This document shows positions 1-8,343 of a DNA stretch of 11,507 nt, one piece after another (position 1 is the stretch's first letter; every line of letters starts with the position of its first letter). The notes beneath the pieces are model-generated. The model worked only from the letters and a program-made list of their open reading frames with translations. It did no database searches and was not told where the DNA came from. Made by a program: the position numbers and the translations under genes. Source of the stretch: a virus (lineage: Duplodnaviria; Heunggongvirae; Uroviricota; Caudoviricetes); the IMG/VR virus record IMGVR_UViG_2740892442_000015. One strand, 5' to 3'.

Positions 1-468
1 TTTTGAATATGGAAATAAATCAATTATATTGCCAATTATTCCATCTTTTTGACAAAAGAGAATTATTATTAGATAAATGAAAGTAAACGTAATAAATGAG
101 ATGAAAACTTTCATAAATGCCATAAAGTTATATTTTAACGTGGGCATCTGTGTTTTTTTATGTTGTATTGACATCATCTGAAGAAACATCTCGGGTTTGG
201 ATAGTGTTGCAAATATTGTGAAACCAGCAATGAGAAAACCTAAGGTTGTCACTGCAAAGTTAAAACCAATCAAAGCCCAGTTTCTAATGTCAGATACTAA
301 ATGAGACATATCCTTCTCAATAAAAAAAGAGTTTGTTAATAAAAAAATAGATGCTGTGAGCAAAATGCAAATATGGAATGTACTAATAGTAATCCGTTTG
401 CAGAGCAAGTAAACATCCCAAAGGTTTTTCTCTTTGGTTATTTCTTTAGCATCTATTTTATTTATCAT
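1..468 (-). CDS. Partial ORF (first 156 codons; C-terminus lies beyond window start) encoding a predicted multi-pass membrane protein; last gene of the repressor-linked operon
   Basis: My own translation of the minus strand from ATG 468-466 to position 1 is open for 156 codons with no stop (MINKIDAKEITKEKNLWDVYLLCKRITISTFHICILLTASIFLLTNSFFIEKDMSHLVSDIRNWALIGFNFAVTTLGFLIAGFTIFATLSKPEMFLQMMSIQHKKTQMPTLKYNFMAFMKVFISFITFTFIYLIIILFCQKDGIIGNIIDLFPYSK...). The start overlaps the TGA stop of the upstream gene (ATGA at 465-468). It has several long hydrophobic stretches. It is absent from the supplied ORF track, probably because it has no stop inside the window. In this very AT-rich DNA an open frame of this length is unlikely by chance. 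Confidence 0.6.
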   Translation of the reverse strand, partial: MINKIDAKEITKEKNLWDVYLLCKRITISTFHICILLTASIFLLTNSFFIEKDMSHLVSDIRNWALIGFNFAVTTLGFLIAGFTIFATLSKPEMFLQMMSIQHKKTQMPTLKYNFMAFMKVFISFITFTFIYLIIILFCQKDGIIGNIIDLFPYSK

Positions 469-1493
469 CGACCAAACCTTTCATATATATTGCTAATAAT
501 TCTAATCGTCTTTTGTGAAAGAGAACGGGGTAGAGATATCTTACCTTCTTCTACAAGATTTTCATACCGCTCATAACTTTCATTTGCAGCTACTACCGTA
601 TCCTTTGATAATTCATTCATCTCACTTAACAAAACAAAGTCATCATTGCTACCTTTGATTATATCACCATTGTCATCATATCCTTTAATATTTATTCCTG
701 AATTAGCCAATCTGGTTGCTGATGTGAGTTGTTCTAAAACAGCACCATGATTCAAGCCTGAATCGGTGTTTGAAAAGCGAATAGATGTAGAAATACTTCC
801 CATTTCGTCTCCGGCACTTTCAAGTGACTCCCAAAATTCGTCGTTATCAATTTCTTCTTGATTTGTAGGGAGAAGTTTTACTGAGACATTTTGGATTTTA
901 TTAAAATTATCAATAAATTGCTCTAGGCTTTGTTTGTCAGTTAACGGCGTTATTCTTAGCTTCGGGCGTTTGATTTCGTTCCGTAAGCTTTTTTTAGTGA
1001 CTCGAGGTAAGTCAGGGTTTTCTTTGCGTTCTTCTTGTGCGGTTTCGTATAAATGAGATATGTATTTTTCATATTCTATGTTTAAGAAACACTGACTTGT
1101 TGACTGAAAGTTTTGAATTGTGGGAGCACCACTAACTTCCTTGCAAAGAATTAATCTGTGAGTGTTTAATATTAGAAGAAAGAAAGAGCTCGGGGCTGTT
1201 TCAAGCTCTTTATGATCTTCAACCAGATCAGCACCATCAAATACTTGTTCTCTGGTTAATAATGTATTCTTAATAATCCGACCTTTAATTCCGAGTACTG
1301 GGGGTGTTGCTTCTTCGTCAAGTATGACGCATTCAGTATCAATGAAAAAGAACTCTGATTTGTCAGATATTCTGCGGATGTTTGCCATCTCCAAAAAAGA
1401 GGGGAAAACAATTTCATCATAATAGTCTAGCAAAACATCATCACCAAAACGGAGAGTATAATTTCCAAATTCGAGTTTTTTTATAAAATCCAT
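465..1493 (-). CDS. Hypothetical 342-aa protein, acidic and Ser/Asn-rich, no motif I recognise (no P-loop, no tyrosine-recombinase signature); middle gene of the repressor-linked operon
   Basis: ORF from the track. A GAGG Shine-Dalgarno sits about 8 nt upstream of the ATG at 1493. It lies 15 nt downstream of the repressor gene on the same strand, and its stop overlaps the start of the next ORF. Spot counts give roughly 30 percent GC, far below the tail genes. Confidence 0.8.
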   Translation of the reverse strand: MDFIKKLEFGNYTLRFGDDVLLDYYDEIVFPSFLEMANIRRISDKSEFFFIDTECVILDEEATPPVLGIKGRIIKNTLLTREQVFDGADLVEDHKELETAPSSFFLLILNTHRLILCKEVSGAPTIQNFQSTSQCFLNIEYEKYISHLYETAQEERKENPDLPRVTKKSLRNEIKRPKLRITPLTDKQSLEQFIDNFNKIQNVSVKLLPTNQEEIDNDEFWESLESAGDEMGSISTSIRFSNTDSGLNHGAVLEQLTSATRLANSGINIKGYDDNGDIIKGSNDDFVLLSEMNELSKDTVVAANESYERYENLVEEGKISLPRSLSQKTIRIISNIYERFGR

Positions 1494-1508
1494 TACTATG
1501 CCTCAAGA

Positions 1509-2387
1509 TTAAATAGTACGGTACTGTGAGAAAATTTTGGCAACTAATTTTATATCTTCTTTTTCACAATCAAATGTTAAATCATCGTCTGTTACTCGAA
1601 GATTGCCTCCAGGTAATAGAAAAATTTGTTTTAACTTGAAATTATTTTGGTATTGAACAATCCATCTTCCGTCTTCAACATTAGCTTTATTCATGTGTGC
1701 AATATTTATGCAATGTTCGTCTTCAATTGCGAGTAAATCATTAAAATGAGGAAGCAGGGACTTATCTATCAATAAATGACCAGCATCGAAAATTTGATTG
1801 TCAATAAGTTTTACTTTAGGAATTTCTAAAGCTTCACTTTCTTCGCTTCCAAGTTTTTGCCCGCGCCCAGTTGCTAACCATAAAAGAGAAGTTCTTGTTT
1901 CCAACGAGCATCTTATGATCCAGTCAGCTGGGAATGTGTCTCGCAAGTATCTATTCGCCATTGTGCTTTTAGACACATTCAAATGGTCGGCAAGTTCTTG
2001 TCTTGTTTTAAAGCCATACGCTTCCATTAGCCTGTTTATCGCATTACGTCCACCTGAATCCAGATTTGGATGGTTCACAATTGGGTTCTCGTTGGTGGTG
2101 GCTTTGGGAACATATTGAACCAATGATGCTGGTTCCTCTAATTTAGCGGGAACTTCGGTATTCTTAGGAAATGGCACGCCTTTTCCGAATGAGAGCCACT
2201 CTATAGATGCTCCTGTTTCAATTGCACACTGAATTACCCAGTCAGCAGGAAATGCGTCACGCATCCAGCGCGTTCCCATAGTACTTGCAGATACATTGAA
2301 CTGTTCACATAGGGCTTGCCGCGTCTTGAATCCATACGCTTCAAGCATGCGCGTTATGACTGCCTGTCCTCCGTTTTTGAAATTCAT
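1509..2387 (-). CDS. Phage CI-type repressor-like protein with two tandem N-terminal HTH domains (186 CI-like family) and a C-terminal LexA/S24-like domain that appears degenerate
   Basis: Residues about 8-70 (VITRMLEAYGFKTRQALCEQFNVSASTMGTRWMRDAFPADWVIQCAIETGASIEWLSFGKG) and about 115-177 (AINRLMEAYGFKTRQELADHLNVSKSTMANRYLRDTFPADWIIRCSLETRTSLLWLATGRG) are about 60 percent identical to each other and match my memory of the phage CI repressor HTH domain. The C-terminal part (GRWIVQYQNNFKLKQIFLLPGGNLRV) resembles the LexA/CI S24 fold, but I see no G-x-S-M motif. The gene is divergent from an Apl/Cro-like gene. Confidence 0.8.
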   Translation of the reverse strand: MNFKNGGQAVITRMLEAYGFKTRQALCEQFNVSASTMGTRWMRDAFPADWVIQCAIETGASIEWLSFGKGVPFPKNTEVPAKLEEPASLVQYVPKATTNENPIVNHPNLDSGGRNAINRLMEAYGFKTRQELADHLNVSKSTMANRYLRDTFPADWIIRCSLETRTSLLWLATGRGQKLGSEESEALEIPKVKLIDNQIFDAGHLLIDKSLLPHFNDLLAIEDEHCINIAHMNKANVEDGRWIVQYQNNFKLKQIFLLPGGNLRVTDDDLTFDCEKEDIKLVAKIFSQYRTI

Positions 2388-2512
2388 CTAGTACGCCTTT
2401 GAGTAATATTGAGTTGATACTTCTCAAATGAAGAATTAATGTGTGCGAAAGTGAACTTGACGGTGTTAATCACCAGTTACCACACATCATGTTAATCGAG
2501 GAATCTTGCATC
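2388..2512. promoter_or_regulatory. Divergent intergenic switch region between the repressor gene and the Apl/Cox-like gene; likely carries both promoters and operators
   Basis: 125-nt gap between divergent start codons. TTGACG at 2457-2462 is a -35-like hexamer. The 8-mer TGTTAATC occurs twice (2464-2471 and 2490-2497). GGTGTTAATCACC at 2462-2474 has inverted 4-bp arms. A further TTAAT lies in the gaattaatgtg stretch just upstream. Confidence 0.45.
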
Positions 2513-4404: not shown

Positions 4405-4638
4405 ATGCGTAATATTGAAATCCTCACGACTAAAACCGGACCGGATGACGCAGGGCTTAATATTTTACTGACAGAGGCTCGTCTGGAAGAACGTCGGGCA
4501 AGGGCTGAAGCAATGGCAGCTCGCCTTGATAGCCTGGCGTGTCATATCACATCCCGCCAGCTAAACCACGTCAAAGCGGCAGAACTGCTGCGTGTAACTG
4601 CTGAAGCAATCCAGAACGAAGCGCAGGAGATCCACTAA
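4405..4638 (+). CDS. 77-aa ORF with a strong ribosome-binding site, in the same frame as the tape measure ORF and separated from it by one TAA; possibly the N-terminal part of a disrupted tape measure gene
   Basis: AGGAG at 4393-4397 lies 7 nt upstream of ATG 4405 (the track starts at TTG 4399). The stop TAA at 4636-4638 is followed two codons later by the tape measure ORF start in the same frame (4645-4405 = 240, a multiple of 3). The protein is helical and Ala/Arg/Glu-rich. Confidence 0.5.
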   Translation: MRNIEILTTKTGPDDAGLNILLTEARLEERRARAEAMAARLDSLACHITSRQLNHVKAAELLRVTAEAIQNEAQEIH

Positions 4639-4644
4639 TGGCTG

Positions 4645-7011
4645 ATGCAATGGATCTCGTACACCCGCAATATTGAACAGCTCGGTGATGCGCTGAACTA
4701 TCTGGATGATAACGCCATGTCGAAAGGGGCAGACATCATTGATGTGATGCAACGTCTGGGCGGTGTGGCTGACCGTCTGGATTATCGTAAAGCGGCGGCG
4801 CTGGGTTCCACCTTCCTGACACTGGGCGCTGCGCCAGAGGTTGCAGCCAGTGCAGCAAACGCGATGGTGCGTGAATTGTCCATTGCCACCATGCAAAGCA
4901 AGAGTTTCTTTGAAGGGATGAATCTGCTGAAACTCAATCCTGAAGTGATTGAAAAGCAGATGACGAAGGATGCGATGGGAACTATCCAGCGTGTGCTGGA
5001 GAAGGTGAACGCACTGCCGCAGGACAAGCGTCTGTCTGCCATGACCATGTTGTTTGGTAAAGAGTTTGGCGATGACGCGGCGAAACTGGCAAACAACCTG
5101 CCGGAACTACAGCGCCAGCTAAAACTGACAGCGGGCAATGATGCGCTCGGTTCCATGCAGAAAGAATCCGACATCAACAAGGACTCACTTTCTGCTCAGT
5201 GGTTGCTGGTTAAAACCGGAGCGCAGAATACCTTCAGCAGCCTGGGCGAAACGCTGCGCCAGCCGCTGATGGATATTCTGTACACGGTGAAAAGCGTTAC
5301 GGGAGCGTTGCGTCGCTGGGTGGAAGCTAACCCGGAACTGACGGGCACACTGATGAAAGTAGCCGCTATTGTGGCTGCGGTTACCGTAGGCCTCGGCACC
5401 TTGGCTGTGGCGCTGGCTGCAGTGCTGGGGCCGCTGGCAGTCATCCGTCTGGGATTCTCTGTGCTGGGCATCAGAACGTTACCTTCCGTTACGGCAGCAG
5501 TAACACGAACCAGCAGCGCGTTGTCCTGGCTGGCTGGCGCACCACTGGCACTGCTGCGACACGGGCTTGCTTCATCGGGTAACGCAGCGGGTTTACTTAC
5601 TGCGCCGTTGTCGTCTTTGCGCCGTACGGCATCACTGACGGGAAATGTCCTGAAAACTGTTGCAGGTGCGCCGGTTGCACTTTTGCGGTCTGGATTATCC
5701 GGTTTACGTGCGGTTGCTGTGATGTTTATGAATCCTCTGGCGGTACTGCGCGGTGGACTGACCGCTGCAGGTACGGTGCTGCGAGTACTGGCATCTGGTC
5801 CACTGGCGATGCTGCGCGTTGCCCTGTATGCCATATCTGGTCTGTTAGGTGCTCTGCTCAGTCCGATAGGTCTAGTGGTTACTGCACTGGCAGGCGTGGC
5901 GCTGGTTGTCTGGAAATACTGGCAACCCATCACCGCATTTCTCGGTGGCGTGGTGGAGGGATTCAAAGCGGCGGCAGGTCCCGTCAGTGCCGCATTCGAA
6001 CCACTTAAGCCTGTGTTCCAGTGGATTGGCGACAAAGTGCAGGCGCTGTGGGGCTGGTTTACTGACCTGCTGACGCCCGTTAAGTCGACCTCTGCCGAAC
6101 TGCAGAGTGCAGCGGCAATGGGGCGACGATTCGGGGAGGCCCTGGCGGAAGGGCTGAATATGGTCATGCATCCGCTGGACTCCCTGAAATCCGGCGTTTC
6201 CTGGTTGCTGGAGAAACTCGGCATTGTCAGTAAAGAGGCCGCAAAGGCAAAACTACCGGAAAGCGTGACGCGTCAGCAACCTGCGACGGTGAATGCAGAC
6301 GGCAAAGTGATGATGCCATCGGGTGGTTTTCCATCATGGGGATATGGCTTTGCGGGGATGTATGACAGCGGCGGGTATATCCCGCGCGGGCAGTTTGGCA
6401 TCGTCGGTGAAAACGGGCCGGAAATTGTTAACGGCCCGGCAAATGTGACCAGCCGGAGAAATACAGCTGCACTGGCTGCCGTTGTTGCCGGAATGATGGG
6501 CGTTGCTGCCGCGCCAGCAGAGCTTCCACCGTTGCACCCTTTGGCACTTCCCGCGAAAGGTGGAGAAGCAATTGTGAGTCGCGCAGCCACTGTGCCGCTC
6601 GTTCAACGGATTGAGGCACCGACGCAGATCATCATTCAGACGCAGCCAGGACAAAGTGCGCAGGATATTGCGCGGGAGGTGGCACGCCAGCTTGATGAAC
6701 GTGAACGCAGGCTGAAGCAAAAGCCAGGAGTAACTACAGCGATCAGGGGGGATACGACGCATGATGATGGTGCTGGGATTGTACGTGTTTATGCTGCGCA
6801 CCGTTCCGTATCAGGAACTGCAGTATCAACGCAGCTGGCGACATGCGGCAAACAGTCGGGTAAACCGACGTCCGTCCACGCAGTTTCTGGGACCGGAAAA
6901 CGACATGCTGACGCTTTCCGGTGTTCTTATGCCGGAGATAACAGGCGGCAGGCTGTCGTTGCTGGCACTGGAGCAGATGGCAGAACAGGGGAAAGCATGG
7001 CCCCTGATTGA
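4645..7011 (+). CDS. T: Phage tail tape measure protein (P2 gpT-like); probably disrupted at both ends, since the 3' 250 nt of this ORF overlap gpU
   Basis: The N-terminal region (GADIIDVMQRLGGVADRLDYRKAAALGSTFLTLGAAPEVAASAANAMVRELS) matches my memory of the tape measure core motif. A central hydrophobic region carries repeated xPLAxLRxGL motifs. It sits immediately upstream of gpU and gpD. The ATG at 4645 has no Shine-Dalgarno within normal spacing. Translation past about 6760 looks like out-of-frame junk and overlaps the recognisable gpU frame. Confidence 0.85.
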   Translation: MQWISYTRNIEQLGDALNYLDDNAMSKGADIIDVMQRLGGVADRLDYRKAAALGSTFLTLGAAPEVAASAANAMVRELSIATMQSKSFFEGMNLLKLNPEVIEKQMTKDAMGTIQRVLEKVNALPQDKRLSAMTMLFGKEFGDDAAKLANNLPELQRQLKLTAGNDALGSMQKESDINKDSLSAQWLLVKTGAQNTFSSLGETLRQPLMDILYTVKSVTGALRRWVEANPELTGTLMKVAAIVAAVTVGLGTLAVALAAVLGPLAVIRLGFSVLGIRTLPSVTAAVTRTSSALSWLAGAPLALLRHGLASSGNAAGLLTAPLSSLRRTASLTGNVLKTVAGAPVALLRSGLSGLRAVAVMFMNPLAVLRGGLTAAGTVLRVLASGPLAMLRVALYAISGLLGALLSPIGLVVTALAGVALVVWKYWQPITAFLGGVVEGFKAAAGPVSAAFEPLKPVFQWIGDKVQALWGWFTDLLTPVKSTSAELQSAAAMGRRFGEALAEGLNMVMHPLDSLKSGVSWLLEKLGIVSKEAAKAKLPESVTRQQPATVNADGKVMMPSGGFPSWGYGFAGMYDSGGYIPRGQFGIVGENGPEIVNGPANVTSRRNTAALAAVVAGMMGVAAAPAELPPLHPLALPAKGGEAIVSRAATVPLVQRIEAPTQIIIQTQPGQSAQDIAREVARQLDERERRLKQKPGVTTAIRGDTTHDDGAGIVRVYAAHRSVSGTAVSTQLATCGKQSGKPTSVHAVSGTGKRHADAFRCSYAGDNRRQAVVAGTGADGRTGESMAPD
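5520..5880 (+). repeat. Degenerate in-frame tandem repeats inside the tape measure gene
   Basis: Peptide motifs APLALLRHGL, APLSSLRRT, APVALLRSGL, NPLAVLRGGL and GPLAMLRVAL recur at intervals of about 20-25 residues. The corresponding DNA segments (ccactggcactgctgcg, ccgttgtcgtctttgcg, ccggttgcacttttgcg, cctctggcggtactgcg, ccactggcgatgctgcg) repeat at a period of about 65 nt. Confidence 0.5.
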
Positions 7012-7246
7012 AGGCAGCGGCACGATTTACGGCATGTATGTGATTGAGGGACTGAATCAGACTAAAACGGAGTTTTTCCGCGACGGTATGCCGCGCCGGA
7101 TTGAGTTCACCCTGTCGCTCAAACGGGTGGATGAATCCCTGTCCGATATGTTCGGTGATCTCAGTGCGCAACTGAATAATCTGCAGGACACGGCAACGTC
7201 TGCCTTAAGTGATATCAGTAAAACGGTGGGAGGGCTGCTGTCGTGA
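6761..7246 (+). CDS. U: Phage tail protein U (P2 gpU-like), 161 aa
   Basis: ORF from the track starting MMMVLGLYVFMLRTVPYQELQYQRSWRH..., which I recognise as P2 gpU-like. Its length is close to P2 gpU, and its stop overlaps the gpD start (GTGA at 7243-7246). Confidence 0.9.
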   Translation: MMMVLGLYVFMLRTVPYQELQYQRSWRHAANSRVNRRPSTQFLGPENDMLTLSGVLMPEITGGRLSLLALEQMAEQGKAWPLIEGSGTIYGMYVIEGLNQTKTEFFRDGMPRRIEFTLSLKRVDESLSDMFGDLSAQLNNLQDTATSALSDISKTVGGLLS

Positions 7247-8343
7247 ATTTCAGCTCAGAACTGCTTAACAAAGGCAACAAAACTCCCGCATTCAGCATCA
7301 GTATTGAGGGCAGGGATATCACCACTGTGCTGGATAACCGCCTGATGAGTTTGACGCTGACGGATAACCGGGGCTTTGAAGCGGACCAGCTTGATCTGGA
7401 GCTGGATGACGCTGACGGAAAAATCGTGCTGCCGCGCCGTGGTGCGGTCATTACGCTGGCGCTGGGCTGGAAGGGGCAGCCGCTTTTCCCGAAAGGGGCA
7501 TTCACAGTGGACGAGATTGAACACACTGGCGCACCGGACCGCCTGACTATCCGGGCGCGAAGTGCTGATTTTCGGGAAACGCTGAATACCCGCCGTGAAA
7601 AATCGTGGCATAAGACCACCGTCGGGGAAGTGGTGAAGGAAATAGCCGCGCGGCACAAGCTGAAGATGGCACTGGGTAAAGACCTGTCGGATAAGCCCGT
7701 GGAGCATATAGACCAGACTAATGAGAGTGACGGCAGTTTTCTGATGCGGCTGGCGCGACAGTACGGTGCCATCGCGTCGGTGAAAAATGGCAATCTGTTA
7801 TTCATCAGGCAGGGGCAGGGCAAAAGCGCCACTGGTAAACCTCTGCCAGTGATCACTATCACACGCAAGGACGGCGACAGTCACCGATTTACCCTGGCAG
7901 ATCGCGGAGCCTACACGGGCGTAATTGCCAGCTGGTTGCATACCCGCGAACCTGCGAAGAAAGAAAGCACCACGGTGAAGCGTAAGCGCAGAACTAAGAA
8001 GCAGAAGAAAGAGCCGGAAGCGAAGCAGGGCGATTACCTGGTGGGTACGGATGAAAACGTGCTGGTACTTAATCGCACTTATGCCAACCGGAGCAACGCC
8101 GAACGAGCGGCGAAAATGCAGTGGGAACGCCTGCAACGCGGCGTTGCGTCATTCTCGCTACAACTGGCGGAAGGGCGGGCAGATCTCTACACGGAAATGC
8201 CAGTGAAAGTCAGTGGCTTTAAACAGCCGATAGATGATGCGGAATGGACTATTACCACCCTGACGCATACTGTCAGCCCGGATAACGGTTTTACGACCAG
8301 TCTGGAGCTTGAAGTGAAGATTGATGATTTCGAAATGGAATGA
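7243..8343 (+). CDS. D: Phage tail protein D (P2 gpD-like, late control D family), 366 aa
   Basis: ORF from the track with a GTG start overlapping the gpU stop. It holds the gpD position between U and ogr, as in P2, and the sequence matches my memory of the family. Confidence 0.9.
   Translation: MNFSSELLNKGNKTPAFSISIEGRDITTVLDNRLMSLTLTDNRGFEADQLDLELDDADGKIVLPRRGAVITLALGWKGQPLFPKGAFTVDEIEHTGAPDRLTIRARSADFRETLNTRREKSWHKTTVGEVVKEIAARHKLKMALGKDLSDKPVEHIDQTNESDGSFLMRLARQYGAIASVKNGNLLFIRQGQGKSATGKPLPVITITRKDGDSHRFTLADRGAYTGVIASWLHTREPAKKESTTVKRKRRTKKQKKEPEAKQGDYLVGTDENVLVLNRTYANRSNAERAAKMQWERLQRGVASFSLQLAEGRADLYTEMPVKVSGFKQPIDDAEWTITTLTHTVSPDNGFTTSLELEVKIDDFEME

Follow-up and report, generated by a model that had tools for sequence, protein, structure and literature searches.

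At the left end of the DNA analysed here, a stretch of 11,507 nucleotides from a tailed-phage record (IMGVR_UViG_2740892442_000015; hereafter the window), a prophage repressor gene is followed by two genes of unfamiliar sequence, and the question raised by this locus is whether they form an exclusion system of the kind known from phage lambda. A sequence-only reading of the window had proposed this from the gene order, which is indeed that of lambda cI-rexA-rexB: repressor, soluble protein and multi-pass membrane protein, co-oriented and tightly packed. RexAB was the first abortive-infection system to be found, and its trigger and mechanism of activation are still unresolved (PMC12894663). We consider that the two genes, termed A and B, probably encode (with a rough probability of 0.65) a RexAB-type two-component abortive-infection, or phage exclusion, module carried as cargo in the slot between repressor and integrase of a 186-like prophage.

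Anatomy of the repressor-linked genes

The three genes lie packed on the minus strand, with all the coordinates that the sequence-only reading had assigned. The cI gene (1509..2387) encodes a 292-residue immunity repressor of the 186 type whose N-terminal HTH domain is duplicated in tandem: Pfam matches Phage_CI_repr (PF07022) twice (E 4e-59) and Phage_CI_C (PF16452) at E 2e-16, the internal repeat is 44% identical (E 2e-32), and counterparts in relatives are annotated 'phage repressor protein CI'. Its TAA stop codon (1511-1509) is followed by a minus-strand spacer of 15 nt (1494..1508, read directly from the sequence), in which the GAGG ribosome-binding site proposed earlier is present at 1504-1501, with 7 nt between it and the ATG of gene A (1493); a spacer this short rules out a terminator between cI and A. 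Gene A (465..1493, minus strand) encodes an acidic soluble protein of 342 residues with a predicted RexA/RdgC fold, a putative infection sensor. It overlaps gene B in the sequence ATGA (465..468, minus strand), with the TGA of A at 467-465 and the ATG of B at 468-466, an arrangement that suggests translational coupling of the two. By gene calls and annotation, the A-B junction is likewise a 4-nt overlap or a gap of at most 3 nt in Serratia, V. harveyi, Kosakonia, Pseudomonas and Klebsiella phage 4LV2017. The window holds the 5' part of gene B (1..468, minus strand), codons 1-156 of 226, and the remainder lies beyond its left edge.

Upstream of cI, a divergent switch region (2388..2512) separates the repressor gene from an apl/cro-like gene on the plus strand (2513-2734), and by analogy with phage 186 the lysogenic promoter for cI, A and B should lie within it. 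A consensus promoter scan returned fewer sites than shuffled controls, with none upstream of cI or A and nothing convincing in 2388..2512, and so this promoter is placed by inference rather than located. Terminator-like sites on the minus strand across cI, A, B and int are absent except for one weak site inside B, and a 9-bp stem followed by a T-run lies 3' of int. The spacing and the absence of terminators would suggest that A and B are co-transcribed with cI, and cI is presumably the first gene of a lysogenic cI-A-B-int transcript.

The host element is a 186-like (Peduoviridae) E. coli prophage, as indicated by Phage_186_Fil and CP76/CII, and thus the P2-type context suggested earlier can be narrowed to a 186-like element, and one that is a deletion remnant from which the replication, head and most tail genes are gone. 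It had also been suggested that the pair occupies the usual place of the integrase after the repressor. The pair does sit in the cI-int slot, but it has not replaced the integrase, which in near-identical genomes is retained 90 nt past B, outside the window. GC content is 0.29-0.37 over positions 1-1800 as against 0.51-0.60 in the tail genes (about 4600 to 8200). This low GC content and the variable contents of the slot, described below, support the proposal that the pair is acquired cargo.

Predicted structures and sequence relationships of A and B

Protein A has, by two independent structure-comparison methods, the predicted fold of lambda RexA. The best PDB match to its model is the RexA crystal structure (8TWQ), ahead of all other entries, with RdgC second, and the model shows a beta-rich globular domain with an inserted alpha/beta domain, its nearest structural neighbours being RexA and RdgC. 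Structure prediction has in this way strengthened a Rex-like reading that had been based on layout. At the level of sequence, A has no significant match in Pfam, PHROGs, NCBIfam or PADLOC, in agreement with the earlier statement that it carries no recognised motif, and nothing at E<=1 to the RexA models of Pfam (PF15969) or PADLOC (PDLC02339). As a control, lambda RexA itself is matched by Pfam at 1e-97 and by PADLOC at 9e-110, and lambda RexB by PADLOC at 9e-61. Profile-profile comparison by hhalign of the A family (profiles A1 and A4, including a more diverse 82-sequence version) with lambda RexA or with an alignment of 27 RexA sequences (A3) gave probabilities of 1.4-2.2%; all three RexA alignments share one register, pairing A 248-313 with RexA 196-261. 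A profile search of PDB sequences returned no matches at E<=10. Neither A nor B shows significant sequence similarity to its lambda counterpart, and A-B is most likely a relative of the classic RexAB exclusion system that the searched family libraries have missed. Residues H112, N211 and G271 of A are invariant in the family.

A weak sequence bridge between A and RexA-like proteins may be provided by DUF4747 (Pfam PF15931), a domain that has been ascribed to RexA, to Sbash gp30 and to CarolAnn gp44 (PMC6426596, PMC6426606). The A protein of the window does not match it, and the best score among its relatives (P0097, 21.5 bits, E 1.7e-4) is below the gathering threshold of 27 bits. Only 2 of 82 diverse family members reach E<=0.01, and precomputed sub-threshold matches occur in 19 of the 120 listed homologues of A, a tie too weak to amount to membership.

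The two proteins also differ in size and charge, lambda RexA having 279 residues and a pI of 8.6, in contrast to the 342 residues of A with a pI of 4.73, a net charge of about -20 and a single basic patch at residues 151-180. Lambda RexA, Sbash gp30, CarolAnn gp44, Toast gp42 and RexApp of Pseudomonas putida are non-specific DNA-binding homodimers. As A is acidic and RexA basic, DNA binding of this kind by A is doubtful, and the DNA binding of RexApp is to be extended to A only with caution.

Other identities for A were considered and rejected. The homology to an integrase, replication or housekeeping protein that would have counted against the sequence-only reading did not appear, and the integrase is a separate downstream gene. 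A is not a plain RdgC homologue, having no RdgC match in Pfam and an obligate membrane partner; RdgC, a recombination-associated DNA-binding protein, is to our knowledge a housekeeping protein that has no membrane partner and does not occur as hotspot cargo. Kiwa and other catalogued two-gene membrane systems were rejected likewise, PADLOC being silent: A, the B fragment of the window and CI were compared with the defence and candidate families of PADLOC v2.0.0 (including Kiwa, PD-T4/T7/Lambda and PDC), none of which matched at E<=1.

Full-length B has 226 residues in near-identical E. coli genomes (locus L001, 11788-12468). Its hydrophobic segments, at about 26-50, 65-89, 117-141 and 162-194, number four, so that the multi-pass membrane protein read from the window is borne out, with three helices inside the window and the fourth only in the full-length protein. 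The AF2 model (pLDDT 86) shows four long helices, and the count of lysine and arginine residues, 18 on the predicted inner side and 5 on the outer, would favour an N-in/C-in topology. The invariant residues of B, those at 77-99 included, fall mostly into four parts of the protein: its N-terminal segment, helix 2, the central loop and the stretch that follows helix 4. With this topology assumed, these parts would face the cytoplasm. Lambda RexB also has four hydrophobic helices, but only 144 residues, whereas B has a long C-terminal helix. The relationship to RexB that had been sought for B found no support: the RexB models (Pfam PF15968, PADLOC PDLC02340) do not match, hhalign of the B family profile (A2) with RexB gave a probability of 0.5%, and a Foldseek search of BFVD with the B model returned no structure with E below 0.6. 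No homology between B and RexB can be demonstrated, and four helices are a generic trait of membrane proteins. What the locus does share with the broad RexAB type is a four-helix membrane protein encoded just 3' of a RexA-like gene, and on the model B is a four-helix inner-membrane protein and putative effector.

Linkage, conservation and genomic neighbourhoods

B lies immediately downstream of A in all 16 fetched loci with an intact A, and homologues of both are numerous in the protein database (167 clusters for A and 207 for B at 90% identity); the layout is therefore not a chance pattern of open reading frames. At 50% identity the family comprises 693 clusters, and a search of the same kind yields several times as many for it as for canonical RexA. 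The pair is spread through numerous gammaproteobacterial orders and reaches into some Betaproteobacteria. Its taxonomic spread is wider than that reported for RexABpp (PP_5643/PP_5644; Sci Rep 2026, PMC12894663), whose BLAST relatives are mainly pseudomonads. A literature search for the RefSeq accessions WP_000345586 and WP_000608638 found no paper mentioning either.

When the E. coli genes are compared with those of Kosakonia, A has a dN of 0.15 and B one of 0.14 with synonymous sites saturated, and both genes are under purifying selection. This bears on whether the copy in the window might be a mere relic of a prophage in decay, with no current function. The gene losses of the element are in keeping with such decay, as are a nonsense mutation in A of the near-identical strain TUM10008 and the rarity of the module in E. 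coli (13 of 5426 complete genomes). An intact relative of the prophage is carried by E. coli ETEC4091. Against this, A is intact in the window and the 156 codons of B are uninterrupted, the overlap and ribosome-binding site are preserved, B is intact at 226 residues in near-identical genomes, the window proteins' own 90% identity clusters hold 162 (A) and 150 (B) sequences, and dN does not exceed 0.15 at saturated dS. As such, we regard an inert relic as extremely unlikely.

The pair recurs elsewhere, both in prophages and in defence islands. The order cI-A-B-int is found in E. coli, Serratia, Kosakonia and Klebsiella phage 4LV2017. Further E. coli genomes carry PD-Lambda-1 (locus L026), PDC-M18 (L003) or only a 63-aa open reading frame (L024, L025) in the identical slot at the same attachment site, so that the contents differ among related prophages and include known defence systems, in keeping with the cI-int hotspot already described for P2/186-like prophages (PMC9122126, PMC13586616). 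PDC-M18 resembles A-B in position and in combining a soluble protein with a strongly hydrophobic partner, but hhalign shows no significant relation of A to PDC-M18A or of B to PDC-M18B, and PD-Lambda-1, in the same slot, is unlike the pair in being a single 558-aa DUF4041 protein. Lambda RexAB belongs to a lambdoid prophage, in contrast to A-B, which occurs in 186/P2-like prophages and also outside prophages, where its neighbours include Druantia DruA, HsdR with PrrC, type I restriction-modification genes, a WYL regulator, and a ZorD-like helicase with a PD-T4-1-like protein. One Pseudomonas copy sits after ychF with no repressor or prophage nearby. Defence-island neighbourhoods fit any mode of defence, including the blocking of phage entry.

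These contexts also bear on whether A might chiefly regulate the lysis-lysogeny switch of the prophage, or recombination, in the manner of a RexB-independent role of RexA or of RdgC, rather than serve in defence. The position of A directly behind cI would suit a regulator, as would RdgC being its second-best structural match. However, the pair also occurs apart from any repressor or prophage (beside Druantia, beside type I restriction-modification with PrrC, and after ychF), the membrane partner is always present, A is strongly acidic, and the slot is a hotspot with interchangeable defence systems. A regulatory role is in our view very unlikely.

Small inner-membrane proteins encoded by lysogeny-expressed prophage genes often block injection, and the module might on that general ground protect at the membrane without abortive infection, either by superinfection exclusion that blocks DNA entry or as a toxin-antitoxin-like addiction pair. 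The tight two-gene operon has the layout of a toxin-antitoxin system, and the module has been kept in a defective prophage. Yet known exclusion and toxin-antitoxin proteins offer no parallel to the fold homology of A with the RexA sensor, and such protection is an improbable account of the pair.

A candidate mechanism and other Rex-type systems

If A-B is an abortive-infection module, the lysogenic promoter would drive cI, A, B and int as a single unit in the lysogen, with translation of A and B coupled through the ATGA overlap. A would be a cytoplasmic dimer, by analogy, sensing a product of the infecting phage, and because it is strongly acidic it may respond to a phage protein, or to protein bound to DNA, and not to naked DNA. 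Once activated, A would engage the conserved cytoplasmic face of B, which would probably oligomerise and depolarise or permeabilise the membrane, so that growth stops and the infection is aborted.

[quoted passage not shown] CarolAnn gp44/gp43, Sbash gp30/gp31 and Butters gp30/gp31 resemble A-B in pairing a soluble DUF4747/RexA-like protein with a four-TM membrane protein and in their expression in lysogens, and in CarolAnn the gene pair directly follows the repressor. The triggers of the actinobacteriophage systems are specific phage proteins. They differ in having actinobacterial hosts, and CarolAnn gp44 and gp43 have no hhalign or Pfam link to A and B. In Butters the roles are reversed, the RexA-like gp30 being the effector and gp31, dispensable for defence, neutralising it (PMC12894663). 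By the same logic A would be a toxic or antiviral effector held at the membrane by B until infection frees it, and the conserved cytoplasmic face of B would suit binding of A equally well. The precedent of the membrane effector in three of the other four systems runs counter to this, as do the lack of a recognisable enzymatic or toxin motif in A, the strict A-B linkage (16/16) and the nonsense mutation of TUM10008, which falls in A rather than B. These points are not decisive, as they are compatible with either model, and we hold the reversed arrangement to be unlikely.

More tentatively, and with the odds against it, the preferred reading of A-B as a RexAB-type module may be extended to a Rex-type branch that is distinct in sequence and, at 50% identity, numbers about 700 clusters among Gamma- and Betaproteobacteria. 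Its strongly acidic RexA/RdgC-fold sensor would read a phage protein and not DNA, and would act through a membrane effector that shares no ancestry with RexB. In that case the RexA fold would be a transferable sensor module, joined more than once to different pore-forming partners in the immunity regions of prophages as well as in defence islands of the chromosome, and A/B might be the chief branch of Rex-type immunity to have been overlooked. Both the Rex-type kind of system (PMC12894663) and the cI-int hotspot are already known; what the present locus brings is a family native to E. coli, tightly conserved, widespread and not picked up by Pfam, PHROGs, NCBIfam or PADLOC, and a case in which fold comparison recovers Rex-type systems overlooked by sequence profiles. 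If active, the pair would be a tractable E. coli model for the coupling of a RexA-fold sensor to membrane effectors, a missing model for defence-annotation tools, and a further case of 186/P2-like prophages swapping defence cargo between repressor and integrase. We note that operons labelled 'DUF4747/CarolAnn' have also been reported from Acinetobacter, where they are given as IMG gene numbers (PMC13373217).

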